Shown: positions 8,618 to 60,242, counted from the stretch's first letter. The stretch: 64,000 bases of DNA from an uncultured Candidatus Binatia bacterium (GCA_964524885.1 CAZGEJ010000008.1:53462-117461), one strand, 5' to 3'. Program-made: numbers and translations. The notes: generated by a model not told the origin, from the sequence alone.

Positions 8618-11600
8618 TCACTCCGGATCCGTGCAGTCGACGCGGAATCGCGCCGTGCCGCGGCCGTTGAGAGCCGCTGAACACGACGGCCGCGCATCTT
8701 GGCAGAAGCCGATGCCTGCCGTCGGGCAACTCGGTGCCTCGCAGCCGTCACCATCCTCACCACCCGTCGGAGTACAAGTCGTAAAGCCCTCCTGGCCGAT
8801 GTACTCCCAGCAGCAATCGCCGAAGGTGGGGAACCCGGTCCATCCGCCGTCGGCGGCGATGCCCACCTGGTCGATGTTGTCGAGCGGGGCGTCGGCCTGG
8901 ATCCGACACGTGGTCACGGCATTGTCCGACAGATTGTCGTCGTTCGGTGTCAGGTTGAGCGTCAGGCGTCCCCCCGGCCACTCCGCCGGGTCGACCGAGC
9001 CGCCATCGCTGCTGGTGACGCTGAAGCGGTGTGTACCCTGCGGGCAGCAGATCCCTGGGCTCTGGCAGAGCCCGGAGCCGTTGCAGCGCTCGACTCCGTC
9101 ACAGGCGCGATTGTTGCTCGTGCACACGGAGCCGAACGCGTCGTTGCCGTTGCAGTCGTCCGCGTCCTCGCGGCATTGTTCGCTACAGTCCGAATCGCCG
9201 TCGACTCCGGGGCATGGATTGCCCGAGCCCACGCAGGCTCCGGCGCCATTGCACGAAGAAGTGCTGGTACAGAACAGGCCGTCATTACACGGCTTACCGC
9301 TTGGGTTGTTGCCGGTGCAGGAGTACGTTCCGCCGGTTTCGACACAGGCCTCCGTGCAGTCGGAGCTGTTGAGGCCTTCGTCGACCAGCGACTGGCACGG
9401 ATCGTTGCTGCCGACACAAATGCCGGTCGCGTTGCAGCGGTCCGTCGTCGTGCACGCCAGGCTGTCGTTGCAACTCGAGTTGAGCGGGTCGTTGCCGTTA
9501 CAGTCGTCATTCGCTTCGCGGCACTGTTCACTGCAATCGCCGTCGCCATCGGCGCCCTGGCACGGCGTGCCGGTACCGATGCAGAAGCCGTCGCCGTCGC
9601 AGCGATCGGTGGCGGTGCAGAACAAGCCATCGTTGCACGACACGTTGGCCGGGTCGTTGGTCGAGCAGTCGTCCTCCGCCTCGTTGCAGCGCTCCGAGCA
9701 GTCGCCGTCGCCATCCGGTCCTGGGCACGGATCGCCGGCATGGACGGTACAGGCACCGGCACTGCACCGGTCGGTACCGTTGCAGAAGGTACCGTCCGAG
9801 CAGTTGCTGAGATTGGCATCTTGCGCCGTACAGCTGCCGACGCCGATACAGCCATAGCCGCTGCAGGCCGTCTCGTCGGCGCACGCCTCGCTGCAATCGC
9901 TGTCCAGGTCGCCCAGCTTGAACTGATTCGCGGGCAGGTAACACGGGTCGTTCGGGTCGTCCGGGTCGCTGCCGATGATACAACGCTTGTTGCACGGATC
10001 GGCGCTGCGTACGCACGCACCCGCGCTGCACTTGTCGGCATCGCCGTTGCAGAAATCGTCGTCTCGGCAATCGAGGGCATCAGCCGACACGGCGGTGCAG
10101 CTCGACGTCGCTTCGTCGCAGGCATCTTGGCACGTCGCCGACAAGCCTACGCCGCGACCCAGCAAATCCTTGCTGTCGCCCGGACAGGGCGGCGCGCCGC
10201 CTTGGCATGTGCCGGCGACACAGAAGTCCTGCGCCACGGTGATGTCGGTGCCGTCGATCGAGAACACCTCCGAGGCGCAGGCGCGAGCGGCGCAGCGCCC
10301 ACCGTTCGGACAGTCCGCGTTGCCGGCACAAGGCTTGCCGGCGTCGGGTCCGTCGCAAACGTCGGCGCAGTTGTTGCTGCGGCAGTCCGAGTCCTGCGTG
10401 CAAGCGTTGCCGACGTCCGCGCCGGTGCAGAACAGTTGGTCGTTGCAGGGGGTGCCGTCCGGATCGGGGAAAGTGCAGGTGTTGGCGAACTCGTCACACG
10501 ACTCGCTGCAATTGATGTCGTCGTCGCCGCCATAGGCGCCGCCGTTGGGACAGGGATCGATGTTTTCGCTGACGCACAGACCGCCGGCGCAGACCTCGGT
10601 GCCGTTGCAGAACAGGCGATCGTCGCATGAGGAGCCATCCGGGTCATTGCCCGTGCAGGCATCGGCGCTTTCGTCGCACGTCTCGGAGCAGTCGGTGTCG
10701 GCATCGGGTCCGGCACACGGATCACCCGTGTGAATCGTGCAGGAGCCACCGCTGCACGTATCGTTGCCATTGCAGAAGAATCCGTCGTCGCATGGCGCCT
10801 GGTTGGCCTCGTGGCTGCAAGCGCCGAAGCCGTTGCACTCGTCGTCCGTGCACTGGTTGTCGTCGCTTTCGCAGACCTTGCCGGCAGGGGCGTAGCCGTT
10901 GTCGCGACAGCTGCCGCTGCCGTTGCAGGTGTCCTGCACGACACAGGCGCTACCCGGGTCGCCACATGGCGTTCCGGAGATTTCGAAGTTCGGGCGACAG
11001 ACCCCGGCACCGTTACACGAATCGGGGTTGTTGCATTCGGTATCCGTGCCGTCGCCGCACGTCGTACCGGCATCGACGAAGCCCTGGTCGAGACACTCGC
11101 CGGAACCGTCGCAGGTATCTTGGTTGATGCACTCGGTGCCCGTATCGCCGCAGGCCGTACCTACGGGCATGTCGTTGTCGCCGCACGCGCCGGCACCGTC
11201 GCAGGAGTCGGGTGCCGTACAGGCATTCGAGGTGGGATCGCCGCAGGTCGTGCCGGCCGACTTGAAGCCCTGATCGGCGCATTGGCCGCTGGCATCACAG
11301 GTGTCTTGGTTGGTGCACTCGGTGCCGGCGTCACCGCAATGGCTGCCTACCGTCGCGTGGTTGACGGCACAGGTACCGGAGCCGTCGCAGGTGTCGGGAT
11401 TGGTGCATTCGGTATCCGACGCATCGCCGCAGGGTGTACCGGCCGCGACGAAGCCGGCGTTGCGACATTGGCCGAAGCCGTTGCAGGTGTCCTGGACGAC
11501 GCACTCGCTGCCGGCGTCGCCGCAATCGGTGCCGCTGACGGCATGGTTGCCCTGGCAGGTACCGGCTCCGTCACAGGTGTCGGGGTTGGTACAGGCGTCG

Positions 11601-14296
11601 TCGGTAGGATCGCCGCAGGTCGTGCCAGAGGGGCGGAAGCCGTTGTCGCTACAGCTACCGCTACCGTCGCAGGTATCCTGCACGGTGCACTCGTCGCCGG
11701 CGTCGCCGCACGTCGCTCCCGACGGGGCGTCGTTGGCCAGACAAGTCCCTGCCCCATCGCAGGCGTCGGGGTTGGTGCATTCGCTGTCGAGGGCCGAGCC
11801 GCAGGTGGTTCCCGCCGAAAGGAAACCGTTGTCGACGCAGCTACCGTCACCGTTGCAGGTATCTTGCACGGTGCACTCGTCGCCGGCGTCGCCGCACGCG
11901 GTGCCCACGCTCAAGTCGTTGTCCTGGCAGGTACCGGCACCGTTACAGGTATCCTGAGCGCTGCACTCCGTCGCCGGGTCGCCGCAGGTCGTGCCGCTCA
12001 CCTTGAAGCCGTTGTCGCTGCACGCACCGGTGCCGTCGCAGGTATCTTGGTTGACGCATTCGGTGCCGGCGTCGCCGCACGAAGCTCCGGCCACGAGGTC
12101 GTTCGGCTGGCAGCTGCCCGTGCCGTCACAGGTATCCTGGCCACTGCATTCGGTCGCAGCATCACCACACGTTGTGCCGCTCGGCCGGAAGCCCTGGTCG
12201 GAGCAACTCCCCGTGCCATCGCAAATGTCCTGGACGGTGCACTCGTCCCCGGCATCGCCACACGGCGTACCATGCGAGCGAAAGCCGTTGTCCGAACAGG
12301 TGCCAGCACCGTTGCAGGTATCCTGCACGGTGCACTCGTCCCCGGCATCGCCACAGGAGGTACCGGCGGCGAGGAAACCGTTGTCAGAGCAACTGCCGGT
12401 GCCGTCGCAGGTATCCTGCACCGTGCATTCGTTGCCGGCGTCGCCGCAGGTCGTGCCCGTGGGCAAGTCATTGGGAACGCACGAGCCCGTGCCGTTGCAC
12501 GTATCCTGGCCGCTGCATTCGTTGGCTGGATCGCCGCAGGTCGTGCCGGAGGCGACGAAGCCGTTGTCGGTGCAGCGCCCCGACCCATCACAGAGGTCCT
12601 GGTTGGTGCACTCGTCCCCGGCATCGCCGCAGGTCGTGCCGGCGGAGCGATGGTTCACTTGGCAACTACCGGCGCCATCGCAGGTGTCTTGTTCGGAGCA
12701 TTCCGTCCCTGGGCTGCCGCAGCTCGAGCCGGCGGGGGCGAAGCCATTGTCGACGCAACTGCCGGTGCCGTCGCAAGTGTCGCGCAGGGTGCATTCCGTG
12801 CCCGGATCACCGCAGCCGGTACCCGGCGCCAGATCGTTGGCGAGACAGCTGCCGGCACCGTCACAGGTATCTTGCTCGGAGCACTCGGTGGCCGGATCGC
12901 CGCAGGCCGTGCCGGCGGTGGCGAAGCCATTGTCGACGCAGCTTCCCGAGCCGTCGCAGGTGTCTTGTAGCGAGCAGGCATCGGGGTCGCCGCCACAGGC
13001 GGTTCCGGCGGGCAGGTCGTTGGCGATGCAGTTGCCGTTCCCATCGCAGGTATCGGCCAGGCTGCAGCCGTTCGCCGAGGCGTCGCCGCAGGTGGTGCCG
13101 AAGGGAGCGGCCATGTTGATGCAACCGCCCGAGCCGTCGCACGCGTCGACCGTACACGGGTTGCCGTCGTCGCATTCGACGTCGGGGTTGGTGCCGACCT
13201 GCACCGGCAGGCACGCGCCGTCGGCACCGCCCGTCTTGTCGCCGACGCAGGCCATGCAGCCGGAGTCACAACGGGCATCGCAACAGACGCCATCGCTGGA
13301 GCAGATGCCGGACTGACACTGATCGTCGCTGCCGCAGGCGCGGCCGAGAGGTGCCGGCGTTTGGGTCGGCGTGGCGGAAGGCGGGGGCGAGACGAGCGGC
13401 GGCGAGGTGGCGGTCGGCGTCGGCGTCGGCACGCTCTGGTACATCGATTCGTGCAGGAAGTCGGCGCAGGTGTCGACGCTGTCACGCGTGCAACTCTGCA
13501 GACTGGTCAAGTCGTTGCCGCAGGTGTCGAGGCCCGTGCTCAGCATGCCGGTGTCGCAGCGCTTGGCGATGCCGCCGGCGAGCTTGTCGAGGACGCCGAC
13601 GTACTGCTTGTACATCGGGTTGTTGGCGGCATCGACCTGGCTGCAATCGACGCTCTCCCAGCCGGGACGCTGGCGGTCCTTGTTGAACTGGCACTTACCG
13701 CGCAGCTGCAACACCTTGACGCCGTACTTGCGCGCTTCCTTGCCGACCGCCTTCTGGCAGCTGATCGCGGCGCGATCGTCGAGACCGGCTGTCGGCGTAC
13801 CGTAAACGTCGGTGACGATGCCTTCGATGCAGGCATCGGCGAGACACTTGAGGCATTTGCCTACGTCACTGTATCGCTTCAGTTCGGGGACGAAGGCATC
13901 GCAGGGGGCGGGGCAACCGGCGAAGCCGAGCGCCGCCGGGCCGACGGGGGCGTCGGCGTCGCAGCGCGAGGTCATGCGGCTGAAGGCAGAAGCCGTCTGA
14001 CCGGCGATGGCGTCGATGCCGTCGCCGTAACCGGCGGCAACCCAGGTGCTGGGATCGGCGCAGTCGAGCGTCGGCGGTGGCGGCAGGTCACCGGCCATTT
14101 GGTCGGCGTAGCAGTCGGTGTAGACGCGCAACACTTTGTCGAAATAGGCGCCGGCGCTGCTGTTGATGGCGCGGCGGCACTTGGCGCCGCCCGAGTCGAG
14201 CTGCCCCTCCTGGGCACCCGCGAAGTAGAGGGTTCCGGCGCCGATGCCGAACGCGAGAATCAATCCGAGTCGGATCACCGTGTTGCGTGTGCGCAT
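8618..14296 (-). CDS. Secreted cysteine-rich tandem-repeat protein (1892 aa): N-terminal Cys-containing domain, Pro/Thr linker, ~21 tandem ~31-aa four-Cys repeats, then ~10 C-x-D-x-x-F-C-N-G...PC (DUF4215-like) units
   Basis: ORF with signal peptide MRTRNTVIRLGLILAFGIGAGTLYFAGAQ and GGGGG 9 nt upstream of the ATG. Repeats such as CGDPATECSEQDTCDGAGSCLANDLAPGTG recur in tandem. The C-terminal half carries CDDGFFCNGNDTCSGGSCTIHTGDPC-type units. These resemble Myxococcales cysteine-rich repeat proteins. Confidence 0.8.
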   Translation of the reverse strand: MRTRNTVIRLGLILAFGIGAGTLYFAGAQEGQLDSGGAKCRRAINSSAGAYFDKVLRVYTDCYADQMAGDLPPPPTLDCADPSTWVAAGYGDGIDAIAGQTASAFSRMTSRCDADAPVGPAALGFAGCPAPCDAFVPELKRYSDVGKCLKCLADACIEGIVTDVYGTPTAGLDDRAAISCQKAVGKEARKYGVKVLQLRGKCQFNKDRQRPGWESVDCSQVDAANNPMYKQYVGVLDKLAGGIAKRCDTGMLSTGLDTCGNDLTSLQSCTRDSVDTCADFLHESMYQSVPTPTPTATSPPLVSPPPSATPTQTPAPLGRACGSDDQCQSGICSSDGVCCDARCDSGCMACVGDKTGGADGACLPVQVGTNPDVECDDGNPCTVDACDGSGGCINMAAPFGTTCGDASANGCSLADTCDGNGNCIANDLPAGTACGGDPDACSLQDTCDGSGSCVDNGFATAGTACGDPATECSEQDTCDGAGSCLANDLAPGTGCGDPGTECTLRDTCDGTGSCVDNGFAPAGSSCGSPGTECSEQDTCDGAGSCQVNHRSAGTTCGDAGDECTNQDLCDGSGRCTDNGFVASGTTCGDPANECSGQDTCNGTGSCVPNDLPTGTTCGDAGNECTVQDTCDGTGSCSDNGFLAAGTSCGDAGDECTVQDTCNGAGTCSDNGFRSHGTPCGDAGDECTVQDICDGTGSCSDQGFRPSGTTCGDAATECSGQDTCDGTGSCQPNDLVAGASCGDAGTECVNQDTCDGTGACSDNGFKVSGTTCGDPATECSAQDTCNGAGTCQDNDLSVGTACGDAGDECTVQDTCNGDGSCVDNGFLSAGTTCGSALDSECTNPDACDGAGTCLANDAPSGATCGDAGDECTVQDTCDGSGSCSDNGFRPSGTTCGDPTDDACTNPDTCDGAGTCQGNHAVSGTDCGDAGSECVVQDTCNGFGQCRNAGFVAAGTPCGDASDTECTNPDTCDGSGTCAVNHATVGSHCGDAGTECTNQDTCDASGQCADQGFKSAGTTCGDPTSNACTAPDSCDGAGACGDNDMPVGTACGDTGTECINQDTCDGSGECLDQGFVDAGTTCGDGTDTECNNPDSCNGAGVCRPNFEISGTPCGDPGSACVVQDTCNGSGSCRDNGYAPAGKVCESDDNQCTDDECNGFGACSHEANQAPCDDGFFCNGNDTCSGGSCTIHTGDPCAGPDADTDCSETCDESADACTGNDPDGSSCDDRLFCNGTEVCAGGLCVSENIDPCPNGGAYGGDDDINCSESCDEFANTCTFPDPDGTPCNDQLFCTGADVGNACTQDSDCRSNNCADVCDGPDAGKPCAGNADCPNGGRCAARACASEVFSIDGTDITVAQDFCVAGTCQGGAPPCPGDSKDLLGRGVGLSATCQDACDEATSSCTAVSADALDCRDDDFCNGDADKCSAGACVRSADPCNKRCIIGSDPDDPNDPCYLPANQFKLGDLDSDCSEACADETACSGYGCIGVGSCTAQDANLSNCSDGTFCNGTDRCSAGACTVHAGDPCPGPDGDGDCSERCNEAEDDCSTNDPANVSCNDGLFCTATDRCDGDGFCIGTGTPCQGADGDGDCSEQCREANDDCNGNDPLNSSCNDSLACTTTDRCNATGICVGSNDPCQSLVDEGLNSSDCTEACVETGGTYSCTGNNPSGKPCNDGLFCTSTSSCNGAGACVGSGNPCPGVDGDSDCSEQCREDADDCNGNDAFGSVCTSNNRACDGVERCNGSGLCQSPGICCPQGTHRFSVTSSDGGSVDPAEWPGGRLTLNLTPNDDNLSDNAVTTCRIQADAPLDNIDQVGIAADGGWTGFPTFGDCCWEYIGQEGFTTCTPTGGEDGDGCEAPSCPTAGIGFCQDARPSCSAALNGRGTARFRVDCTDPE

Positions 14297-14510
14297 GTGC
14301 CGTTACCCCCGAGCCCGTGCATGCGAGTGCGAGCGATGACCCGCGCCAGCGGCGGCTGCCTGTTCGTCTGCGTGCTTCGTCATCGCTTCACCCTCCAGGC
14401 CGGCCGGCGCCCCTCTGCCCTGTCAACTGCCCCTTGGCGCGCGGCTGGCGGCTACTCTTCCCCAGTCTGACCGAATCGCTGCGCTACATACGAAAGTCGG
14501 AACCAAAATG

Positions 14511-14560
14511 TCCAGAGAAATCTGACGAAAATCTGACGTTCGCGATTTTGCAAAGGAATT
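14511..14560. promoter_or_regulatory. AT-rich operator-like region in a divergent intergenic region: direct repeat AAATCTGACG x2 (14518-14527, 14530-14539) and palindrome AGGAA-TTTG-TTCCT
   Basis: Local AT-rich island in a 68% GC background, between the divergent genes starting at 14296 (-) and 14828 (+). The same decamer occurs again at 54482-54491, upstream of the 54663 gene. Confidence 0.4.
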
Positions 14561-14688
14561 TGTTCCTGCGGCGCACGGTTTCCCGCCCCTCCGAAGCGTC
14601 GCCGCGCGCCTCCCCAGCCGGTCCGGACCCGCCGCAGTCCCACCCCGAGCGCCCCCCAACGGCAACCAAACGCAGGCGCCGACGCGCC

Positions 14689-14718
14689 CTAAGCCTCAGC
14701 CTCAGCCTAAGCCTAAGC
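14689..14718. repeat. Hexanucleotide microsatellite (CTAAGC/CTCAGC)x5
   Basis: ctaagc ctcagc ctcagc ctaagc ctaagc, read directly in the intergenic region. Confidence 0.9.
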
Positions 14719-14827
14719 CCTCCGGCGCCCAAGCGCCGACCCCACCAATTGTCCGCCGAGCCCCCGCTCTGGTACGGTCGATCGCACCCGGCGGTGCAGC
14801 AAGCCGCTCGGTAGCGGAGGGCTGACT

Positions 14828-15895
14828 GTGTCCCATCGTTTCGCCCGACTCTGCGTGCTCAGCATGTTGGCCGCCGTGGCCTTCATCTGGATCCGCCGTC
14901 CAGCGGTCGAGCCACCGGTGCACGTACGCGAGTTCGTCTCCGAGGCCCTGACTCTCGACGGCATCTACCGTTCGATGCGCGGGCCGACGAGCAGCCGGAC
15001 CATCCAGATCGACCCGGCCCAGCCGCCGCGCCGCATCTGGATTCGCGGCGTCGATGTCGAACCCGTTGCCGCCGACGGCTCCGTGCTGCCGGACGGCCAG
15101 CAATTCATTTGTCACGTCAATCTGTCGTATCCCGATCGCGAGTCCTGGCTACGCGATCTCGAACCCATGGAGCGCCAGGGGCGCTGGCTGCCCTTCAACC
15201 AGTTCACCTTGGTGCAAGGGCACTACTCCATCGACTTCCCCCCAGGCTTTGCCCTACCCGCCTCCTCCGATCAGCCCTTCCGCTTGCTGACGATGGCGCA
15301 AAATCAGGATCCGGCGCGCGACCCCTTCGCCCTGCACATCCGCTCGCGGCTGCGCTTCCACTACGACGACGAACTGCCTCAGCCCCCCATCCCGCTCAAC
15401 AAGCTCTCTTGGGACATCCGCGTGCCCGCCCCTTACGTTCCCGAGGTGCACGACCCGTTGCGCGCCGGCGAGAGTTGCGCCGGCGACGACCCGATCCTCG
15501 GTGCCGAGGGCACGCCGCCGGTGCTGCACTTCGCCGTACCGCCCGGCCGGCACGAGTATCGCAGCGTCGTCGACGGGGTCACCAAGATCCCGTTTCCGAC
15601 GACGGCGCACCACATTTCGGCGCACCTACACGTCTATGGGGTATCCCTCGAACTACGCGACCAGACGGCCGACCGGACCTTGTTCAAGAGTCTCGCCACG
15701 ACCAACCCGTCGGCCACCGGAATCGTCGAGATGACCCACTATTCGAGTGCCAGCGGCCTGCCGCTCGATCCGACGCACCGTTACGAGTTGATCGCCATCT
15801 ACGACAACCCGACGCCGCACGTGGTCGACGCCATGGCCGTCGTTTACATCTATTACAGAGACGTCCCGCCCGGCTCCGGCGAGCAGGCCTCGTGA
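14828..15895 (+). CDS. Hypothetical membrane-anchored protein (355 aa, N-terminal TM helix), first gene of a three-gene operon
   Basis: GTG start with GGAGGG 6 nt upstream; N-terminal hydrophobic segment LCVLSMLAAVAFIWI. The stop overlaps the next start (GTGA). Confidence 0.6.
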   Translation: MSHRFARLCVLSMLAAVAFIWIRRPAVEPPVHVREFVSEALTLDGIYRSMRGPTSSRTIQIDPAQPPRRIWIRGVDVEPVAADGSVLPDGQQFICHVNLSYPDRESWLRDLEPMERQGRWLPFNQFTLVQGHYSIDFPPGFALPASSDQPFRLLTMAQNQDPARDPFALHIRSRLRFHYDDELPQPPIPLNKLSWDIRVPAPYVPEVHDPLRAGESCAGDDPILGAEGTPPVLHFAVPPGRHEYRSVVDGVTKIPFPTTAHHISAHLHVYGVSLELRDQTADRTLFKSLATTNPSATGIVEMTHYSSASGLPLDPTHRYELIAIYDNPTPHVVDAMAVVYIYYRDVPPGSGEQAS

Positions 15896-16764
15896 GTCCT
15901 TTCAGGATCCCATGGGCGCCTGCGGTCGACGGCCCCACGGAGCGCCGCCGGCAGGTCGACGCCTTCGCCACGCTGCTGCTGGCGATCGTCGCCGTCGAGT
16001 ATTGGTCGCGTGGCATCCCGAAGTGGAACGACCTCGGCCCGCAGTACGTCGGGACCGCCGTGCTCGTCAGCGTGCTGGCGCTGCTGGGCATCGCGTGGCC
16101 GCGAACGCGCCGTAGCGTCTGCGCCGTCATCACCGGGCTGCACGTCGGCATCATCGTCGCCGAGTTTCCCGAAGCGGCGAATCACTCGTACTTGGAGGCG
16201 ACCCTCTGCGGCTTGGTGGCCCTGCTCGACGTCCGGCGCGACGAGGAGGTGGTGCTGCTGCGCGATGCGGCCCGAGTTCTCTTCGCCATCGTCTTGTTCT
16301 ACGCCGGCCTGCAGAAACTCCTGAGCGGCTACTGGTTCGCCGGGCAATACCTCGCCTTCTCCCTGGCGCGTCCGTCCTTCCAGCCCGTCCTCGCGCCGCT
16401 CCTCACGGCCGACGAATTCGCGCGTCTGACGGCCTACGGCGGCGCCGTCGGCGATGGTCCGTATCGGGTCGAGACGCCGCTTTTCCTGCTCGCCTCGAAC
16501 GCGGTCTACATCGCGGAGATGGCCTTGGCGCCGCTGTTGCTGTGGCAACGGGCGCGCGTCCTGGCGGCGCTCGCCGCGATCGCCCTGATCGTCATCATCG
16601 AAATCGCCGCGCGTGAGTTCTTCTTCGGATTGGTCTTTCTCAACCTGGCGTTGCTCTTCCTGCCGTCGTCCTGGCATGGGCGCGCCCGCTGGCCCGGCGC
16701 CGCGGCACTCGCCTACCTTCTGCTCGTGCGCCTCGGCGTCGCGCCGGCGATGGTGTTCCAGTGA
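15892..16764 (+). CDS. Polytopic integral membrane protein, unknown function (~290 aa). A weak, unverified resemblance to HTTM/SdpB-like membrane proteins
   Basis: GTG at 15892 overlaps the upstream TGA. Translation VSPFRIPWAPAVDG... contains many hydrophobic helices. It is reported in the track only as the C-terminal part of the mis-started ORF 15109..16764. Confidence 0.55.
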   Translation: MSPFRIPWAPAVDGPTERRRQVDAFATLLLAIVAVEYWSRGIPKWNDLGPQYVGTAVLVSVLALLGIAWPRTRRSVCAVITGLHVGIIVAEFPEAANHSYLEATLCGLVALLDVRRDEEVVLLRDAARVLFAIVLFYAGLQKLLSGYWFAGQYLAFSLARPSFQPVLAPLLTADEFARLTAYGGAVGDGPYRVETPLFLLASNAVYIAEMALAPLLLWQRARVLAALAAIALIVIIEIAAREFFFGLVFLNLALLFLPSSWHGRARWPGAAALAYLLLVRLGVAPAMVFQ

Positions 16765-17225
16765 CGACGGCGACGAAGCGGTGGATCGTGCGCGGCGTCT
16801 TGACGGCGGCGCTGCTCTGGCCCCTCGTGCATCTCGCCTTGGTCGCGCGCTACGACTTGAGCCGTTGGAAGCTCGCCGGCTGGGGCATGTACACCGAGCC
16901 GGGACTCAAGGACGTCGGCATGGAAGTCTACGGCCGGCGCACGGCCAACGGGACGCTGGAAATCCTCACCGAGATCGACGCGGTCCTGCGCCGGGAGGCC
17001 GACGAATTCCTGTACGATTATCGCTGGTTGCGCCGCCTGACCCAGCCCGACTCGTTCGTCGCCGCCATCGCCGCGGCGCGTCCCGAGTGGCAACGGATCG
17101 AGGTCCATGTCTTCCGTCCCTATCTGGACGCGGCCAGCGGCATCGTCGAACGCTCGCAGGTGCGTTACCTCTACGACCGAGACCACGACGGGATACGACT
17201 GTCGGCGGTCGAGGAAGTCCATTGA
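16761..17225 (+). CDS. Hypothetical protein (154 aa) with an N-terminal TM helix, third gene of the operon
   Basis: GTG start overlaps the TGA of the previous gene (GTGA); hydrophobic segment WIVRGVLTAALLWPLVHLALV. Confidence 0.5.
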   Translation: MTTATKRWIVRGVLTAALLWPLVHLALVARYDLSRWKLAGWGMYTEPGLKDVGMEVYGRRTANGTLEILTEIDAVLRREADEFLYDYRWLRRLTQPDSFVAAIAAARPEWQRIEVHVFRPYLDAASGIVERSQVRYLYDRDHDGIRLSAVEEVH

Positions 17226-26770: not shown

Positions 26771-27598
26771 TCAGGAACGCCGGGCGCGCGCCACCATGCG
26801 ATCGGCGAGTGCATTGGTGAGACGACGCGGCAGCAACTTCTGCAACCACCAGGCGAAACGGGCGCGCCGGCCCGGGATGATCAGAAACTGTCCACGCTCG
26901 AGGCGGTCGATCATGTAACGGCAGCCCGCATCGAGGTCGACCACGCCGGCGAACAACTTCATCGCCGCCGTCTCCGGCGGGCGATCGCGCCGCTCGGACC
27001 GTGCCATCGGCGTGTCGATCTCGGGCGGACAGATCAGGCTCACCGCGATGCCGCGGGGTCGGCATTCGGTCCGCAGCACGCTACCCAACCCGACGACGGC
27101 ATGCTTCGACGCGGCGTAGCCGGCCTGACCATAGGCGGTGGTCAGGCCGGCGAGAGAAGCGACGAGGGCCAGATGCGAACCCGCCTGCATGTGCGGCAAT
27201 ACGGCAGCCGCCAAGTGGCGCGTACCGAATACGTTGATCCGCACCATGTCCTCGAACCGCTGCGCCGGAAATTCGAGAAACGGGCGCGAGAACCCGCCGA
27301 CGCCGGCGGCGTGGAAGACCACCCGCGGCGGACCGAGGTCGCCGACGACCCGTTCGACCGCAACGGCCAAGCCGGCGGCGTCGGTGACGTCGACGATTTC
27401 CGTCAGCACGACCTGCGCCGCGGAGCGCCGGTTCGCTTCGATCGCCGCCACGACCGCAGCATCGAAATGGCGGTCGAACAATGACAGCGATGCACCCCGA
27501 CCGGCATAGAGTTCGGCCACGCGACGCCCGATGCCGCTACCGGCGCCGGTGACGAGGACGTGATCCCAGCTGGCGCCCGACATGCGACTCACCCGCAT
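26771..27598 (-). CDS. Short-chain dehydrogenase/reductase (SDR)
   Basis: TGAGSGIG Rossmann motif and a YxxxK catalytic motif (YAASK); overlaps the upstream regulator gene by 10 bp. Confidence 0.8.
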   Translation of the reverse strand: MRVSRMSGASWDHVLVTGAGSGIGRRVAELYAGRGASLSLFDRHFDAAVVAAIEANRRSAAQVVLTEIVDVTDAAGLAVAVERVVGDLGPPRVVFHAAGVGGFSRPFLEFPAQRFEDMVRINVFGTRHLAAAVLPHMQAGSHLALVASLAGLTTAYGQAGYAASKHAVVGLGSVLRTECRPRGIAVSLICPPEIDTPMARSERRDRPPETAAMKLFAGVVDLDAGCRYMIDRLERGQFLIIPGRRARFAWWLQKLLPRRLTNALADRMVARARRS

Positions 27599-30525: not shown

Positions 30526-30682
30526 CGCACCACGCCCGCCCTTACCACAGAGCGGACGAGCGCTTCGACCCTTCGCCAACGAAAACTCCCGCCGCGAGCA
30601 CGCGCGGGCTGCGGCTCGACAGCAACCGCCGTATGCGCCAAAAGCAGGCTTCGCCTCGTACACGACACCGGGAGGAACGGAG

Positions 30683-31144: not shown

Positions 31145-31146
31145 AG

Positions 31147-31188
31147 GCTGAGGCTTAGGCTGAGGCTTAGGCTGAGGCTGAGGCTTGG
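31147..31188. repeat. Hexanucleotide microsatellite (GCTGAG/GCTTAG)x7, inverted relative to the array at 14689
   Basis: gctgag gcttag gctgag gcttag gctgag gctgag gcttgg, immediately after the thioesterase stop codon. Confidence 0.9.
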
Positions 31189-46343: not shown

Positions 46344-46358
46344 AAGCGGCGGCGCGCT

Positions 46359-53398: not shown

Positions 53399-53701
53399 TC
53401 ATGCCGCCTCGGTCCGTTTCAGCGGCTTGATGTCGAGGATCGTCCGGGCGCTCGGCAGCGTCTTGAGATCATAGGCGGCCTGAAGGTTCAGCCAGAACTC
53501 GGCGCTACCGCCGAAATAGCGAGCGAGGCGGGCGGCGGTATCAGCCGTGACAGCGCGCCGCCCGAGCACGATGTCATTGATTCGCGACGCCGGCACCCGC
53601 AGCGCCATCGCCAGCGCGTGCGGGCTCATCTGCAGCGGCACCAGAAAGTCCTCGCGGAGAATCTCTCCGGGATGAATCGGACGCATACGATTTGTGGGCA
53701 T
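53399..53701 (-). CDS. higA: HigA antitoxin (XRE-family HTH)
   Basis: MPTNRMRPIHPGEILREDFLVPLQMS...INDIVLGRRAVTADTAARLARYFGGSAEFWLNLQAAYDL is the canonical HigA sequence; the start is taken at MPTN. Confidence 0.85.
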   Translation of the reverse strand: MPTNRMRPIHPGEILREDFLVPLQMSPHALAMALRVPASRINDIVLGRRAVTADTAARLARYFGGSAEFWLNLQAAYDLKTLPSARTILDIKPLKRTEAA

Positions 53702-53715: not shown

Positions 53716-53991
53716 TCAATGGTAATCCACGATCTCGACGTCCTCCGCGGCATCGGTCCAGCGGAAGCAAATCCGCCATTGATCGTTGATGCGGATGCTC
53801 CACTGGCCCTCCCGATCACCGGAGAGCTTCTCCAGTCGGTTGCCCGGCGGCGCGCGCAGATCACCGAGCTGGGTGGCCGCATCCAGCGCTTGGAGCCTGC
53901 GTTCGGCGACCGACCGAAACGCGCGAAATCGGGCAGGACACTTGCCGCCGTAGAGCGCCTCGGTGTCCTTGCCCCGGAAGGTCTTGATCAC
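53716..53991 (-). CDS. higB: HigB toxin (RelE/ParE superfamily plasmid-maintenance killer)
   Basis: VIKTFRGKDTEALYGGK...LDAATQLGDLRAPPGNRLEKLSGDREGQWSIRINDQWRICFRWTDAAEDVEIVDYH matches HigB. A GTG start is assumed; an in-frame ATG at 54075 would add 28 aa. Confidence 0.8.
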   Translation of the reverse strand: MIKTFRGKDTEALYGGKCPARFRAFRSVAERRLQALDAATQLGDLRAPPGNRLEKLSGDREGQWSIRINDQWRICFRWTDAAEDVEIVDYH

Positions 53992-54124: not shown

Positions 54125-54662
54125 GAAAGGCGCGTGCCGGGGCTTGCGTTTGAGCTTGGGGGCGCGTTTCCGGGGGCGAAATGGCGGCGCAAGGTCCGCG
54201 GCGGTGGGGTGAATTCGCCGTGTCGGTGATCAGCGGGGCGAACGAGGTCGGTGCAGCGGCGTTCGACCATGGCGGTGCTCCGTGCCTGCGTCCAGCGTAC
54301 GACGTTCCCTTCTGATGCTGCCAAGGCGGACTCGGCGAAATCTAAGGCTCCTGGCTGCCACTGCGACTGTGCGCAGCGGAATGCGCGGCGCTTCGCGGCC
54401 GACGCTCGCTGCGAAGCCATCGGCTCGGGTCGACGCTCATCGGCGGCGAGAGCGCGTGCCGATGTTCTGGGTTGATCTTTTAAATCTGACGTGCGAGCAG
54501 TCCTCCTGAAGTATCTTGTAAGAAAAACTGATTCGGTCGCACGTCTTGCCGACGTGTTGCCCTAACGACAGGGCCTCCGCGGGGGAGGTCAGGCGCATCA
54601 CCGACGAAGCGCGTAGTCATCGGTTCCCGGCGACCACATCGCTTCGTAAAGGGAGGGATTCC

Positions 54663-57600
54663 GTGACCTCGACCCGAAACCTACTCTTCTTCTGGTTGCT
54701 GCTGGCCGCCGCTGCCCCCGCCTACGCAACGAGCTACACCTGGACCGCCGGAGGATTCGTCTCCGGGTCCGCAACCGTGTGGAGCAATCCCGCCAATTGG
54801 AACCCCAACGGCGTACCTGGACCCGGAGATGATGTCGTCATCGACGCCACCATCACCTCGGAGAACGTCTATCTCGACGTCAACGTCACCGTCCGCAACT
54901 ACACCCAGAGCGGACTCAACTTGTACGCAGATGGGAACCTCACCACGACCGGAACCCTGACGTGGCTGGGAGGCCAGATGCAGCGGGCCGGGCTCGCCAC
55001 CGGCGACATCAACGCCAACGGCCCGGTCCTCATCAGCGGCAGCGCATCCAAGATCCTCGGCCGCACATTCAATTGTAATGCCGGAGCGACGTGGACCGGT
55101 TCCGGCGACATCTTTCTCGGGCAGAACGTCGACAACGCAGTGCTCAACATCGCTGCTGGCACCGTCTTTGAGATCCGAGGTGATGCCACGTTCAAGGGCT
55201 CGCTGCTGAGCAACGGCAAGACGGGAACCATCAACAACGCCGGCACCTTGCGCAAGACGACCGCTACCGGGATCACCAAGGTGGAGTCACCGGTCGTCTT
55301 CAACAATACCGGCGCGACCGACATTCAGTCGGGAACCTTGGATCTGACCACCAACGCCACCTACAGCACCGGCACCTTCGGCGCCACGGGCGGCGGGGTG
55401 GTCGGCTTCAGCACCGGTACCCACACCATCCAACCGCCGGCGGCGTTCAATGGCAATACGCTGGTCAACGGCGCGACGGTGAGTTTCACCGGCACTTCGA
55501 ATGCCGTCGGCAGCCTGAGCGTTTCCTCGGGCACGCTGAACCTCAACACGACCGGCACCCTAACCGCCACGAGCATCGCGCCGGCCGGTGGCACGACGAA
55601 TTTCATCGGACCCGTCAACGCCGGGACCGTCAACGCGAGTGCCGGCACTTCGGCGATTACCGGTGCGCTCACCGCCGCGAACCTACAGCTGAGCGGCACC
55701 GCTACGGTCAACTTCACGGCGAGCACTCCAGCCCTGACAGACGTCAGCCTCTCGGGCGGAACTCTCACCTTCGATACCAGCGGCACTGCAGTCGCCGTCG
55801 GCAGCCTCACCCAAAGCGGCGGCACGCTGCAGGGCGCTGACGACGTCAACGTCACCGGTGCACTCAGCTATTCGGCAGGCACGATGGGCGGCACCGGCGC
55901 CACCAACGCCAACGGCGCGTGGTCGCTCAGCGGCACCGGAACCAAGACTCTTCGTCGTACCCTCAACAGCAATGCCGATGCGACTTGGATGAACGACGGC
56001 ACGCTGACCCTCGGAAACGGCGCGGTCGGCGGCGTGCTCAACATCGCCAACGGCACCACCTTCGACGCTCAGGGCAACGGGTCTTTCGCACTCGGAGCCA
56101 CCAGCGCCACGATCAACAACAGCGGTACCTTCCAGAAGAGCGTCGGTTCCGGCACCACCACGGTCGGCACGTCCGTCGTCTTCAACAACACCGGTGCCGT
56201 CGACGTCCAGACAGGCACCTTGTCGATCGGCTCCCCCGGAAATACCTATTCCGGAACCTTCGACGCCACCGGCGCGCAGTTGCGCCTCACCGCTGGCACG
56301 CACAACTTCGGCGGCGCGGCCTCGGTGACCGGTGGCCTGACCGTCGCTGGCGCGACCGTCAACTTCAACGGCACAGGCGCCACTCTCGGCAGCGTGACCG
56401 TCAGCAGCGGTACCCTCAACGTCTCGCCGAGCAGCGCCGTGGCCATCAGCAGCGTGAGCGTCTTGGGCGGTACGGCAAACTTCACGACGGCTGGGACGAC
56501 CATCGACAGCATCGGCATCACCAACGGAACCCTGAATCTCAGCACTTCGACCGCAACCAGCGCCACCAGCCTGACGATGAGCGGCGGAACACTGTCCGGC
56601 TCCGCCACTCTCCATGTATCCGGAGCGTTGGCTTGGTCTGGCGGCCTCATGAGCGGCACCGGCACGACCAACGCCAACGGGGCCTGGACCATGAGCGGTG
56701 TCGGGTCCAAGAGTCTTGGGCGAACGTTGAACAGCAATGCATCCGCCATCTGGACCGGGAGCGGCCCACTGGCTTTCAACGGCGGCGTGCTCAACATCGC
56801 GAGCGGCACGGTCCTCGACACCCAGGGCGACGCATCTATCTCGTTTAGCGCCGTGAGCGCTACCGTAAACAACAGCGGAACGTTCCAGAAATCGGGGGGC
56901 ACCGGCACCACCGCCGTCAACGCCAACGTCGTCTTCAACAATGGCGGCGTGGTGGACGCGCAAACCGGCACGATCACTTTCGGCAGCGGCGGCGGAACGC
57001 ATACCGGCTCCTTCGACGGTACCGGCGCGACCCTCAGCTTCACCGCCGGTACTCACACCTTCAGCGGCAATGCATCGGTGAGTGCCGCCAACTTCAGCGG
57101 CGCTACCGCCAACTTCACCGGTACCAGCGCGACTCTGAGCGCCATCACGCTCAGCGGCGGTACGGTGAACTTCAGCACCAGCAGTCCGTCGGTGAGCATC
57201 GCCGGATTGACGCAGAGCGGTGGGACGCTGAACGGGGCCGACGACGTCAACGTGAGCGGTGCGCTGTCGTGGACCGGCGGGACGATGAGTGGTACCGGCG
57301 CGACGAACGCCAACGGTACGCTCTCGATCTCCACGAGCACGGCGAAGATCCTGGGGCGTACCCTGAACAGCAACGGCACGGGAACATCGGGCACCTCGGT
57401 AAACCTTGGATTCAGCAGCGGCACCCTCAACATCGCGAGCGCGACGACGTTTACCGCGGATGCCGCGAGTTGGACTCTCGCGTCGACGGGCGGCACGGTG
57501 AACAACGCGGGAACCTTCATCAAGTCGACGGCGGGTGGCGCTGCGACGCTGACGTTCGCGTCCGGGATTGCCTTCCACAACAGCGGAACGGTGGATGTAC

Positions 57601-60242
57601 AAAGCGGCTCGCTAACGCTCCCCACCAGCGGCACGCACTCCGGTTCATTCGATGCCACCGGAGCGATGGTCACGTTCAGCGGCGGCACTCATACCTTCAC
57701 GGGCGGGAACGCGCTCACGGGCAGCTCGACGTTCAGCGGCGCCACGGCGAACTTCAACGGAACGACCTCGACCCTCGAAACCGTAACGCTCAGCAGCGGG
57801 ACCCTGCAAGGTTCGGGGACGGTAGACATTGGAACATTGACCTGGAGCGGCGGCACGATGGCCGGCACCGGTGTCACGAATGTGAACACTGCGTCGACGA
57901 TCAACGGCAGTGCGAGCAAAACTCTCGCTCGAACGCTGAACAGCAAAGGCACCGGCAACTTCACGCAAGGCAGCCTGGTGTTCGGCAGCAGCGGTGTCGG
58001 TGGCGTGCTCAACATTGCGGCGGGTACGACATTCAGTGTTTCCGGCGCACAGTTTCCGTCCCCATCGATCAGCCTCGGCGCGGTCAGCGGGGTGATCAAC
58101 AACGCCGGTTCGTTCGTCAAGTCGAATACGTCCGGCAGCGTGGCGATCGGTGCTGGTGTCGCGTTCAACAACAGCGGCACGGTCGACGTGGATGCCTCCG
58201 GTCTCATCCTGAGCGGCGGCGGCACCCATGCAGGATCCTTCGATGCTACGGGCCGGACCATCGAGTTCAACGGCGGGACCCATACCTTCACCGGGAGCGG
58301 CACTGTGATCGGCGGCGTCACCTTCACCAATAGCGGAACCTTCGACTTCACGGGCAGCGGGGCGACGCTCGGCAACGTCACCCTCAACAGCGGTACGGTG
58401 AGCCTCAACACCAGCAGCCCCACCGTCAGCGCCGCAAGCTGGATCCACAACGGCGGGACTCTCCAGGGCGCCAATCACCTGACGCTGAGCGGTGCGCTGA
58501 CCTGGTATGGTGGCTCGATCGTGGGTGGCGCGGATCTCACGGTCAACGGGGCTGCCACCATCGCCTTTTCGACGACGCTGGCGCGCAGGCTCAACGTCAA
58601 CGGGCCGGGCGGCACGCTCTCTCACACCCTCACCATGGGCGTCGGCGGCGTCGGCGGCGAACTCCATATCGGACCGGCCGGGGTACTCGTGGTTCAAGGT
58701 ACCACCGGGTCGATCAACTTCGGGGACACCAGCGCCGCAATCCACAATGCCGGCGTGCTCCAGCGCAGCAACGATACAGGCACGACCACCGTCGGCCCAG
58801 GGGTGACCTTCGAGAATTCCGGCACCGTTACCGCGACGCTCGGCACCCTGAACGTCGGCGGCGCGTACTCGCAGACGGCGGGGACGACCAGCATCAACGG
58901 TGGCTCCATCGTCGCGACGGGTCCCGTGAACGTGCAGGGCGGAACGATCGCGGGCTCCGGATCGCTGACGATGGACGTCGTCAATAGCGGCGGCACGCTG
59001 AGCCCCGGTGCATCACCAGGCTTGCTCACGTCGACCGGCGGTTACGGCCAAGGCACTGCTGCGACATACACGGTCGAGATCGGCGGCCTCATCGCGGGAA
59101 CGGAGTTTGACCAGACGACGTGGACTGCTCCCGTCACTCTCGACGGTACTCTCAACGTGAGCGTGATTTCGCCGTTCGTGCCAAACGCCGGCGACACCTT
59201 CGAGATCATGACCTTCCCGTCGCGCACGGGTACCTTTGCCACGGTCAACGGATTGATCGTCGGCAACGGCAAGGGCTTCACTCTCGACTATGGGGCCACC
59301 GCACTGAGGTTGACGACCATCGAAGAGATCTGTGGCGACTCGACCGACAACGACGGCGATACTTTGATCGATTGCCTCGATCCTAAATGCGCCGATGCGC
59401 TCTACTGCGTTGGGACCGCCACCCCGACGCAGACGCCGACTCCGACCATCACAGAGACCCCGACGCATACCGCGACCGTGACCCCGACCGAGGCCGCGAC
59501 GGCGACGCAAACGGCCACCGAGACGCCAACGGAGACGGCGACGCACACCGCGACGTCGACGCCGACCGAAACGCCGACCCCATCAGCGACCGACACCCCG
59601 ACAGCCGCGCCGACCGATACCGCGACTCTGACACCGTCTGCTTCTCCGACCGCGTCTGCTTCGCCGACACCGGCGGTCGGAACGAGCTGCCCTGCGGCGC
59701 CCGTGACCTGTCGCGACGGCGGCAAGGGATCGGTCGCGCTGAGCTACGATTCCGATCCCACAAAGCGCAAGTTTTCGTGGAAGTGGGGGAAAGGTCTGCT
59801 GACGAGCGAACAAGCGGATTTCGGCAATCCGGTGAGCGGAACACCGCGCTACACTCTCTGCCTCTACGACGAGAGTGCCGATATCCCTACGCTGGCGATG
59901 GAGCTCGAAGTGGACGCTCAGGGTACTTGCGACGACAAGCCGTGTTGGAAGCTAGTTTCCGACAAGGGCTGGGCTTACAAGAGCAAGAGCGGCAACGGCA
60001 GTGGAGTGCTGAAGGTCGCCTTCAAGGGTGGCGACGCCGGCAAACCTTCGCTGCGGGTATCCGCGAAGGGCGCGAGCCTGCCGCTGCCGACGCCGCTCAG
60101 CGGTAGCGAGTCCTTGGACCTCGACAGCAACGTCATCGTGCAGTGGCACGTCAGCGCCCCGGCCGGTTGCTGGCAGAGCGAATTCTCCCTCACGGGCGTG
60201 AAGAAGAACGACGGGGAAGACTTCAAAGCGGTCGCGCCGTAA
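54663..60242 (+). CDS. Large secreted beta-helix-like repeat protein (1859 aa): five ~290-aa tandem repeats, a CxDxDxDGD metal-binding-like Cys motif, a Thr/Pro linker and a C-terminal Cys-containing domain
   Basis: GTG start with GGGAGGG upstream and signal peptide LLFFWLLLAAAAPAYA. The repeated block is ...GTGxTNANGxWxxSGxGxKxLxRTLNSNAxAxWxxxGxLxxGNGAVGGVLNIAxGTxF...NNSGTFQKSxGxGTT.... Then comes EEICGDSTDNDGDTLIDCLDPKC, followed by (TPTxT)n. Confidence 0.75.
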   Translation: MTSTRNLLFFWLLLAAAAPAYATSYTWTAGGFVSGSATVWSNPANWNPNGVPGPGDDVVIDATITSENVYLDVNVTVRNYTQSGLNLYADGNLTTTGTLTWLGGQMQRAGLATGDINANGPVLISGSASKILGRTFNCNAGATWTGSGDIFLGQNVDNAVLNIAAGTVFEIRGDATFKGSLLSNGKTGTINNAGTLRKTTATGITKVESPVVFNNTGATDIQSGTLDLTTNATYSTGTFGATGGGVVGFSTGTHTIQPPAAFNGNTLVNGATVSFTGTSNAVGSLSVSSGTLNLNTTGTLTATSIAPAGGTTNFIGPVNAGTVNASAGTSAITGALTAANLQLSGTATVNFTASTPALTDVSLSGGTLTFDTSGTAVAVGSLTQSGGTLQGADDVNVTGALSYSAGTMGGTGATNANGAWSLSGTGTKTLRRTLNSNADATWMNDGTLTLGNGAVGGVLNIANGTTFDAQGNGSFALGATSATINNSGTFQKSVGSGTTTVGTSVVFNNTGAVDVQTGTLSIGSPGNTYSGTFDATGAQLRLTAGTHNFGGAASVTGGLTVAGATVNFNGTGATLGSVTVSSGTLNVSPSSAVAISSVSVLGGTANFTTAGTTIDSIGITNGTLNLSTSTATSATSLTMSGGTLSGSATLHVSGALAWSGGLMSGTGTTNANGAWTMSGVGSKSLGRTLNSNASAIWTGSGPLAFNGGVLNIASGTVLDTQGDASISFSAVSATVNNSGTFQKSGGTGTTAVNANVVFNNGGVVDAQTGTITFGSGGGTHTGSFDGTGATLSFTAGTHTFSGNASVSAANFSGATANFTGTSATLSAITLSGGTVNFSTSSPSVSIAGLTQSGGTLNGADDVNVSGALSWTGGTMSGTGATNANGTLSISTSTAKILGRTLNSNGTGTSGTSVNLGFSSGTLNIASATTFTADAASWTLASTGGTVNNAGTFIKSTAGGAATLTFASGIAFHNSGTVDVQSGSLTLPTSGTHSGSFDATGAMVTFSGGTHTFTGGNALTGSSTFSGATANFNGTTSTLETVTLSSGTLQGSGTVDIGTLTWSGGTMAGTGVTNVNTASTINGSASKTLARTLNSKGTGNFTQGSLVFGSSGVGGVLNIAAGTTFSVSGAQFPSPSISLGAVSGVINNAGSFVKSNTSGSVAIGAGVAFNNSGTVDVDASGLILSGGGTHAGSFDATGRTIEFNGGTHTFTGSGTVIGGVTFTNSGTFDFTGSGATLGNVTLNSGTVSLNTSSPTVSAASWIHNGGTLQGANHLTLSGALTWYGGSIVGGADLTVNGAATIAFSTTLARRLNVNGPGGTLSHTLTMGVGGVGGELHIGPAGVLVVQGTTGSINFGDTSAAIHNAGVLQRSNDTGTTTVGPGVTFENSGTVTATLGTLNVGGAYSQTAGTTSINGGSIVATGPVNVQGGTIAGSGSLTMDVVNSGGTLSPGASPGLLTSTGGYGQGTAATYTVEIGGLIAGTEFDQTTWTAPVTLDGTLNVSVISPFVPNAGDTFEIMTFPSRTGTFATVNGLIVGNGKGFTLDYGATALRLTTIEEICGDSTDNDGDTLIDCLDPKCADALYCVGTATPTQTPTPTITETPTHTATVTPTEAATATQTATETPTETATHTATSTPTETPTPSATDTPTAAPTDTATLTPSASPTASASPTPAVGTSCPAAPVTCRDGGKGSVALSYDSDPTKRKFSWKWGKGLLTSEQADFGNPVSGTPRYTLCLYDESADIPTLAMELEVDAQGTCDDKPCWKLVSDKGWAYKSKSGNGSGVLKVAFKGGDAGKPSLRVSAKGASLPLPTPLSGSESLDLDSNVIVQWHVSAPAGCWQSEFSLTGVKKNDGEDFKAVAP

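Follow-up and report, generated by a model that had tools for sequence, protein, structure and literature searches.

A conserved tandem repeat beside a putative giant-protein promoter in a Candidatus Binatia bacterium and its recurrence in bacteria and archaea

The repeat array and its gene neighborhood

We analyzed a 64,000-nt stretch of DNA from an uncultured Candidatus Binatia bacterium (GCA_964524885.1 CAZGEJ010000008.1:53462-117461), hereafter the window, with a focus on a tandem array of two 11-nt units (site 1). The array lies in a 531-bp gap between a minus-strand gene for a 1892-aa Cys-rich repeat protein and a plus-strand three-gene operon, which is the divergent setting described in the initial annotation. 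The next gene in the same direction as the 1892-aa gene is a giant open frame with a TPS (two-partner secretion) domain, and the three-gene operon is followed by a gene for a Kup potassium transporter. Coordinates of these features are listed in Table 1.

Read on the plus strand, both units contain the exact 10-mer AAATCTGACG, which starts at 14518 and 14529 (14518-14527 and 14529-14538) and has a third plus-strand copy at 54482-54491 (site 2), as claimed initially. Tandem Repeats Finder reported a period of 11 bp and a 100% match for the site 1 pair, which is therefore a tandem direct repeat with a spacing of one helical turn. In dinucleotide shuffles of the whole window, 0.04 copies of AAATCTGACG were expected by chance, and none of 100 shuffles reached three copies. 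With a first-order Markov model, the expectation was 0.006 copies for intergenic DNA (4.35 kb in total) and 0.07 copies for coding DNA. These values agree in order of magnitude with the earlier estimate of about 0.1 copies; the GC content of the window is 66.5%, not 68% as previously given. It should be noted that AAATCTGACG was picked after the fact and that 25 AT-rich 10-mers occur three or more times in the window. In the minus-strand orientation, which is used below, the unit reads CGTCAGATTT plus an 11th position.

Table 1 Coordinates of the array, the lone copy and the surrounding features in the window.
Feature	Position	Strand	Remarks
Tandem array, two 11-nt units (site 1)	14517..14538	minus	reads CGTCAGATTTT CGTCAGATTTC; plus strand, AAATCTGACG twice
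Conserved 25 nt on the promoter-distal side of the array	14539..14563	minus	AAATTCCTTTGCAAAATCGCGAA; 19/25 identical in L003, 22/25 in L005
TC + TGGACA, -35-like hexamer	14509..14516	minus	starts 2 nt past the array; 8/8 in window, L005 and L003
GAYTTTCG + TATGTA, -10-like region	14485..14498	minus	12/14 in L003, 14/14 in L005; 18 nt from TGGACA
Conserved leader, putative -10 to upstream open reading frame	14385..14484	minus	first 58 nt, 51/58 identical to L003
26-codon upstream open reading frame	14304..14384	minus	strong Shine-Dalgarno GGAGGGTG; stop 8 nt before ATG of 1892-aa gene
1892-aa Cys-rich repeat protein	8618..14296	minus	from open reading frame and profile of GC at third codon positions (GC3); first large gene downstream of the array
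TPS-domain open frame, >2915 aa	3..8747	minus	runs off the left end of the window; GC3 0.86; Pfam TPS E = 1.5e-11
AGGAA-N4-TTCCT palindrome	14554..14567	.	AGGAATTTGTTCCT; sole AGGAA-N4-TTCCT in the window
Promoter-like TTGTCC-N18-TACGGT	14749..14778	plus	~50 nt upstream of the start codon of the three-gene operon
Three-gene operon, first gene	14828..15895	plus	
Three-gene operon, second gene	~15892..16764	plus	faint HTTM match
Three-gene operon, third gene	16761..17225	plus	
higA	53399..53701	minus	toxin-antitoxin pair with higB
higB	53716..53991	minus	toxin-antitoxin pair with higA
Lone perfect unit CGTCAGATTTA (site 2)	54481..54491	minus	plus strand, AAATCTGACG; between higB and 1859-aa gene
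1859-aa beta-helix protein	54663..60242	plus	likeliest start GTG 54663, strong Shine-Dalgarno

Conservation of the array in related lineages

The 355-aa protein encoded at the locus has 14 homologues on record, and the contigs of six were fetched. Synteny with the giant gene upstream was found in just the two closest lineages, at 94% (L004 and L005) and 79% (L003) identity; four of the six contigs, from more distant homologues (L006-L009), are non-syntenic and do not contain the motif. The array thus occupies the same syntenic place in three lineages, the window included.

The intergenic alignment showed a nearly invariant block at about 14402-14563, and the remaining spacer has diverged or been deleted. 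As a neutral calibration, the 4-fold degenerate sites of the flanking genes in the window were compared with those of L003 (identity 0.58-0.60) and L005 (0.74). In the more distant L003, the 10-mer cores of both units are identical to those of the window (20/20), with differences just at the 11th position of each unit. In the closer L005, the cores agree at 19/20 positions, the one change being at position 6 of one unit. The 11-bp period is present in both. At the neutral rate, complete core identity between the window and L003 would have a probability of 0.6^20, or about 4e-5. The block continues through 25 nt on the promoter-distal side of the array, and identity is lost abruptly directly after GGAATTT. 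This footprint supports the view that the site 1 pair is a selected cis-element.

A putative promoter, leader and giant genes next to the array

The elements on the minus strand follow each other in the order 25 conserved nt, CGTCAGATTTT CGTCAGATTTC, TC TGGACA, an 18-nt spacer, TATGTA, a leader of ~95 nt, GGAGGGTG and ATG. TGGACA is invariant in the three lineages, and the first 10 nt of the spacer (14499-14508) are identical to L003 at 5/10 positions, which is the neutral level. Such a conserved hexamer, followed by divergent first spacer positions and a second conserved region, is a classic promoter signature, and the repeats stand immediately upstream of it. TGGACA would be the -35 element. 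TATGTA is tentatively taken as the -10 element, as it is without the usual T at position 6; GACATT (GACAAT in L003), 8 nt past the last heptamer of the array, is an alternative -10.

The leader between the putative -10 and the upstream open reading frame (uORF) contains a degenerate third copy of the unit, GGTCAGACTG (minus strand, 14464-14473), which is conserved. Beside this copy, a 9-mer (GACCGAATC) was seen that recurs inverted at 54530-54538, 48 bp from the site 2 unit, although the overall alignment score there is not significant. A structured RNA leader or riboswitch was considered and rejected. The leader has no Rfam match, its fold has a z-score of +2.05 (i.e., less stable than shuffles), and 0/29 predicted pairs show a compensatory change, so that there is no covariation. 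Rfam and tRNA scans of the window found nothing.

The start, frame and stop of the uORF are kept in both relatives, with 26 aa in L005 and 25 aa in L003 via an in-frame 3-nt deletion, and the peptide sequence drifts between lineages. The uORF may encode a translationally coupled leader peptide. The 1892-aa protein, whose homologues are mostly from Myxococcota and by themselves would suggest a myxobacterial source, has a 1891-aa orthologue at the same position in L003. The L003 gene matching the position of the TPS frame (1-3944), which we assume to be its orthologue, was called as 10,665 aa.

Two other promoter classes were inspected by eye and rejected. For sigma-54 (GG-N10-GC with TGGCAC/TTGCW context), neither strand has a GG at a distance of 10 nt upstream of TTGCA (14548), and TGGCGC-N5-TGGCG (14435-14450), besides being on the wrong side of the array, contains a poor -12 element, which is GGGC in L003. 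For an extracytoplasmic function (ECF) promoter of the form GGAAC-N16-TCTGA, the candidate GGAAC (14499) has been kept in neither L005 nor L003.

The plus-strand operon has a promoter-like element of its own (Table 1), in which all three lineages (window, L005 and L003) share CAATTGTC and TCTGGTACGGT without change, and the spacer is variable in sequence and equal in length. Since this conserved element is 230 bp from the array, the array is unlikely to be part of the plus-strand promoter, and we infer that it belongs to the minus-strand promoter of the giant-protein genes. The intergenic region also contains a hexamer microsatellite, (CCTMAG)n on the plus strand at 14688-14719, with its reverse complement, (AGGCTK)n, in a second intergenic region at 31145-31185. 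The copy at 14688-14719 is absent from L005 and L003, and two short-read contigs of the same strain (L001 and L002) begin exactly there.

Recurrence of the unit across phyla

Sequence collections were scanned for at least two units in tandem. The genome scan, with one genome per species, a query of 19 specified bases (AAATNTGACGNAAATCTGACG) and 1.2e12 positions, returned 28 loci vs. ~4 expected by chance according to our own estimate. The archaeal loci were from Woesearchaeota, Nanoarchaeota, Altiarchaeota and an alkane-oxidizing archaeon. The bacterial loci were from Nitrospirae, Ignavibacteria, Omnitrophota, Latescibacterota, Firmicutes, cyanobacteria, Planctomycetes, Mesorhizobium and a 72% GC delta-proteobacterial metagenome-assembled genome (MAG). 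A metagenome scan, in which a non-G at position 11 was required, added 46 loci, and a viral collection added one. Deduplication of the 75 loci left 68 distinct arrays.

The period was always 11 bp in these arrays, and the copy number was two (27 arrays), three (32), four (5), six (1), eight (1) or nine (2), so that 41 of the 68 had three or more copies. In a matrix of 197 units, positions 1-10 were 90-98% fixed and position 11 was free, which is also the position that varies in the relatives of the window. On this matrix, the two site 1 units scored 21.6 and 20.3 bits, and the dimer 41.9 bits vs. a shuffle maximum of 18.6. The window pair therefore has the same unit, the same 11-bp period and the same free 11th position as the (CGTCAGATTTN)n arrays.

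Nearly half of the arrays are physically linked to one kind of gene. In the CGTCAGATTT orientation, a winged-helix C-terminus with the motif ...(V/I)(T/S)RDTANRDL..L...LI.R.G.G....Y.... is encoded directly upstream at 35 of the 75 loci, corresponding to 33 of the 68 distinct arrays. The gene is always on the same strand as the array, with no case in the opposite orientation. Its stop is at most 9 nt from the first unit in 27 of the 33 arrays (2-9 nt in 26, and a 7-nt overlap in the 27th). Among the set L010-L084, examples in this orientation are L013 7350-7382, L016 1068-1100 and L037 2702-2745. Where full length, the linked proteins combine AlbA_2/Schlafen and HATPase_c_4 domains with a winged helix-turn-helix (wHTH) domain (COG2865-type), and one has a deaminase N-terminus. 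The wHTH domain matched the HTH_24, MarR, TrmB and DeoR profiles, all weakly. The only relative in the PDB is 3lmm, an uncharacterized structural-genomics protein. At several loci, a second gene of the AlbA_2/Schlafen-HATPase_c_4-wHTH family follows the array.

On the other side of the arrays, the neighboring genes are of diverse kinds, with products that include a TIR protein, an AAA ATPase, endonuclease V, AsnA, a glycosyltransferase, kinases and several large secreted proteins. BLAST clustering revealed no second recurrent neighbor family. String searches of the literature for the unit returned primers and adapters only, and the matches on COG2865, AlbA_2 and HATPase_c_4 contained nothing about DNA sites, nor any description of the gene-plus-array module.

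At two loci, the array stands against a near-consensus promoter. In the delta-proteobacterial MAG (L014), CGTCAGATTTC CGTCAAATTTG is followed by G and TTGACC-N18-CATAAT, between divergent genes for a GAF-GGDEF protein and a secreted protein; TTGACC is 1 nt past the array, and the promoter scored 10/12 in a sigma-70 scan. In Mesorhizobium (L036), the stop of a DeoR-family gene lies 2 nt before the array (CGTCAGATTTT CGTCATATTTC), and GT and TTGACA-N16-AATAAT come next; TTGACA is 2-3 nt past the array, and the promoter scored 11/12. The window sequence TC TGGACA-N18-TATGTA is in the same register. The protein downstream of the L014 array is not homologous to the giant proteins of the window, and the shared geometry is thus not due to orthology.

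A probable winged-helix operator at site 1

Based on these observations, we suggest that site 1 is probably a head-to-tail winged-helix operator placed against the promoter of the minus-strand giant-gene operon. The binding of a protein at site 1, the kind of protein, the sign of its effect and the start of transcription are all predicted from sequence comparison. The operator would be built from two CGTCAGATTT units in direct repeat, offset by one helical turn (11 bp) and directly against the -35 element. The promoter would drive transcription of the leader, the 26-aa uORF, the gene for the Cys-rich protein (1892 aa) and the giant TPS-domain gene. A winged-helix factor would bind 14517-14538 as a head-to-tail tandem dimer and either activate or block RNA polymerase. 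The near-consensus promoters of L014 and L036 would suit repression, and the weak hexamers of the window would suit activation.

The physical linkage of the unit to a winged-helix gene in about half of the arrays is the strongest pointer to the kind of protein that reads it. The protein that reads the window site would probably have a related DNA-binding domain and be encoded at another place in the genome. An unlinked COG2865-type protein is one candidate. Within the window, the 1024-aa protein encoded at 27589-30663 (minus strand), 13 kb from site 1, has an N-terminal CadC/PhoB-type winged helix (Trans_reg_C), an AAA_16 domain and a long C-terminal region, and could be a regulator that binds direct repeats. 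The window also encodes an NtrC-type activator and several kinases, which are likewise candidates only.

Several observations weigh against this interpretation. The profile of the array-linked C-terminal wHTH had no match in any frame of the window (best E = 0.85), no wHTH gene stops a few nt upstream of the window array on the same strand, and no wHTH pseudogene remnant was found beside site 1 or site 2. The window site is connected to the winged-helix-associated arrays through motif identity only, and L014 also has no adjoining wHTH gene of the array-linked type. The footprint comes from three lineages, two of them close. The sigma-70 scan called no promoter on either strand at site 1, where TGGACA-N18-TATGTA falls below its thresholds, the window hexamers being weak and TATGTA having no T at position 6. 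Orientation is not uniform among the arrays, since L025 has an extended -10 and a gene on the other side of its array. Furthermore, L014 and L036 have two units each and may be among the ~4 chance hits of the scan, although their strong adjacent promoters argue against this.

The proposed layout resembles several known systems. Direct repeats of 11 bp, with a core of ~7 bp and an A/T-rich spacer, located at about -38 to -60, are bound head to tail by winged-helix proteins of the PhoB/OmpR group, by Streptomyces antibiotic regulatory proteins (SARPs) and by some DeoR-family repressors. The pho box of Escherichia coli, CTGTCAT-N4-CTGTCAT, is the operator of PhoB, a response regulator of the OmpR/PhoB family. 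Like the pho box, site 1 has at least two direct repeats with an 11-bp period, a 7-bp core (CGTCAGA vs. CTGTCAT, with GTCA in common) and a 4-nt A/T-rich spacer; it would also lie at or against the -35 element, and by analogy the head-to-tail binding mode may be shared. In L029, an operon for an OmpR-family regulator and a kinase lies directly upstream of the array. However, the core sequence differs, the window array abuts the putative -35 hexamer whereas the pho box replaces it, no cognate response regulator is linked to site 1, and most other arrays are linked to a different winged-helix class.

In SARP-dependent promoters, heptamers recur at 11-bp intervals along one helix face and end 8 nt ahead of the -10 element. 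The window heptamers are also repeated every 11 bp, and GACATT (GACAAT in L003) is found at that distance from the last of them. However, no BTAD-containing SARP was identified, and the hexamer that follows the array in both L014 and L036 is plainly a -35 element with a normal -10 element 16-18 nt farther on. DeoR-family operators can be tandem direct repeats, such as the 11-mer repeats of Bacillus subtilis IolR. The C-terminal domain linked to the arrays weakly matches HTH_DeoR, HTH_24 and MarR, and the arrangement in L036, with a DeoR-family gene before the array and a near-consensus promoter after it, is a repressor-like layout. However, the recognition helices differ (RDTANRDL vs. PQTIRKDL), and no DeoR-family gene is near site 1. 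Site 1 is closest to the (CGTCAGATTTN)n arrays themselves, with which it shares the identical 10-mer, the 11-bp period, the free 11th position and a next gene downstream of CGTCAGATTT. It differs from them in the absence of an adjoining wHTH gene, in having two units rather than the common three, and in its place in a divergent promoter region instead of 2-9 nt past a stop codon.

As a feature, an operator ahead of an operon is nothing unusual. What is unexpected is that its unit is shared base-for-base across domains and tied to an uncharacterized Schlafen-like ATPase/wHTH family. We tentatively propose, as a possibility still short of an expectation, that CGTCAGATTT repeated every 11 bp is the cognate site of one very widely transferred domain, the C-terminal wHTH of Schlafen/AlbA_2-HATPase_c_4 proteins, and that in bacteria with large genomes (the window lineage, L014, and the Planctomycetes L018/L034 and L021) it has been recruited, without the regulator gene, to the -35-proximal position in promoters of large secreted proteins. 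If so, a site located 2-9 nt past the stop of its regulator would be conserved base-for-base from DPANN and other archaea to at least 12 bacterial phyla.

To our knowledge, next to nothing has been established about how Myxococcota regulate their giant adhesin-like and two-partner-secretion proteins. Site 1 provides a precise, conserved and mutable 22-bp target, together with a promoter model, for one giant-protein operon. In addition, the shared 10-mer offers an experimental handle on what Schlafen-like ATPase/wHTH proteins bind, e.g., as a repeated CGTCAGATTTG oligonucleotide, and the array motif could predict regulons of these proteins across genomes.

Site 2 and alternative explanations

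The initial annotation proposed that AAATCTGACG and the AGGAA-N4-TTCCT palindrome form an operator through which one dedicated regulator co-controls both giant loci, at site 1 and site 2. In its favor, the third perfect copy is intergenic and lies 181 bp before GTG 54663, close to the ~180 bp stated earlier, upstream of the only other giant secreted-protein gene of the window. The chance expectation for it is low (0.04 per window, 0.006 in intergenic DNA), the site 1 pair appears clearly functional by conservation, and arrays precede large secreted proteins in L014, L018/L034, L021 and L037. The site 2 unit scored 21.2 bits on the 197-unit matrix; in shuffled windows, the best score averaged 15.4 and never exceeded 21.6. 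It is the sole such monomer in the window outside site 1, the three next-best matches being in coding DNA.

However, site 2 is a monomer. It has no partner in the 11-bp register, as neighboring 11-mers agree at 0-1/10 positions, and every characterized array has at least two phased units, which the scans required. Judged by the orientation of site 1, L014, L036 and the winged-helix-linked arrays, it faces the higBA toxin-antitoxin pair ~490 nt away rather than the 1859-aa gene, and the sigma-70 scan found no promoter-like element on either side of it, including toward the 1859-aa gene. The best local alignment between the intergenic regions of the two sites is a 14-nt match, AAATCTGACGT-CG, whose score of 23 was equaled in 76 of 300 shuffles, and extended homology between them is thus not significant. 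Neither the 1859-aa protein nor HigB is on record. A homologue search with the 1859-aa protein gave nothing above 43% identity, although this search lists no protein longer than ~1050 aa and may miss orthologues. A HigA search yielded seven contigs covering site 2, all 100% identical to the window. With its low chance expectation (0.006-0.04) on one side, and the missing partner and the orientation toward higBA on the other, a function for site 2 is conceivable rather than expected, and the copy may be a weak site or chance.

The palindrome is present beside site 1 at the position claimed, but an operator role for it fails, because its right arm is not conserved. The arm is replaced in L005 and L004 (AGGAATTTGCGCGT, GCGCGT) as well as in L003 (AGGAATTTTCACTC, TCACTC), so that in none of the three are both arms of the inverted repeat kept. 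The palindrome is a chance coincidence of this strain, as judged from the alignment. A regulator dedicated to giant surface proteins is also not indicated by the 68 distinct arrays in diverse bacteria and archaea, which stand beside unrelated genes (TIR, AAA ATPase, endonuclease V, AsnA, glycosyltransferase) and contradict this part of the proposal. We thus regard the shared operator as unlikely. What survives of it is that conservation and anatomy tie the site 1 element to the putative giant-operon promoter; co-regulation of the second giant gene is no more than conceivable.

The region around site 2 (51000-55000), which carries higBA and a gene for an FTP-propeptide protein upstream of the 1859-aa gene, has a GC content of 0.60-0.64 vs. 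~0.67 elsewhere and is a candidate for a variable island. No close relative of the 1859-aa gene is on record.

It is also possible in principle that the arrays have a role other than that of transcriptional operators. They could mark recombination or insertion junctions, serve as loading sites in the manner of iterons or centromeres, or act as RNA elements in the 3'-untranslated regions of Schlafen-like genes, with the window pair being a relic or a site of this sort. The position 2-9 nt past the stop of the winged-helix gene in 26 of 33 arrays, together with the heterogeneous downstream genes, resembles a cassette boundary, some arrays have 8-9 degenerate copies, and two cyanobacterial arrays adjoin tRNA genes. 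However, the 75 loci show no systematic inverted units or transposon-end pattern, a single viral contig matched, and a BLAST search with a 4-unit array gave no plasmid or phage match, although the low-complexity filter may have masked the query. In addition, the arrays of the window, L014 and L036 are in register with a promoter, a putative one in the window, and not at the 3' end of a gene, and the window array has been stably inherited at the same place in three lineages. We consider this explanation improbable. The two cyanobacterial arrays (L015 4591-4623 and L075 13726-13758) are ~30 nt from the 3' end of the tRNA gene, which is a typical integration hotspot.

A further alternative, which we rate as very improbable, is that the repeats are core promoter elements and not a factor site. 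On the plus strand, they would be duplicated CTGACG -35 hexamers with an A-rich UP-like flank, serving the three-gene operon and, at site 2, the 1859-aa gene; on the minus strand, they would be phased T-tracts acting as an UP element or bent DNA. CTGACG agrees with TTGACA at 4/6 positions, hexamers with A2 and T6 lie 17 nt downstream at both sites (GAATTT 14556 and AAGTAT 54509), conservation stops directly after GGAATTT, and the ATTT tracts, with a phasing of 11 bp, fall at about -40 and -51. However, the sigma-70 scan found nothing on either strand at sites 1 and 2. The candidate -10 hexamers agree with the consensus at just 2-3/6 positions, and neither site has a conserved consensus -10 at 16-18 nt on the plus strand, where the operon has its better, conserved element 230 bp downstream. 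An exact CGTCAG core containing G and C, kept across phyla including archaea with a different promoter architecture, would also be unexpected for an UP or -35 element.

Finally, chance or neutral slippage duplication without any function is extremely unlikely for the tandem pair, which has just two copies in a window where many AT-rich 10-mers recur, but whose units have both been kept across lineages with 26-42% neutral-site divergence, with changes confined to the degenerate 11th position and one core position in L005, and whose identical unit forms arrays at 68 unrelated places, so that the conservation data already strongly disfavor this explanation.

Other features of the window

Two further regions of the window were noted. 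A 42-bp tandem repeat at 62757-62977, with 4-5 copies of ~80% identity and the consensus TCCGTTGAACCGAAAACCGATTTGACATCGCAAAACCGTTCA, lies in a 680-bp intergenic region of 61% GC between a hydrolase gene and a glutamate-5-kinase-like gene. The region at 45438-47679 starts with a full LpxA-like gene (45438-46343), continues with a small open reading frame and a PIN-domain toxin gene (46510-47237), and ends with a second, isolated LpxA C-terminal domain (47320-47679). This arrangement resembles the outcome of a toxin-antitoxin insertion in which the 3' end of lpxA was duplicated.

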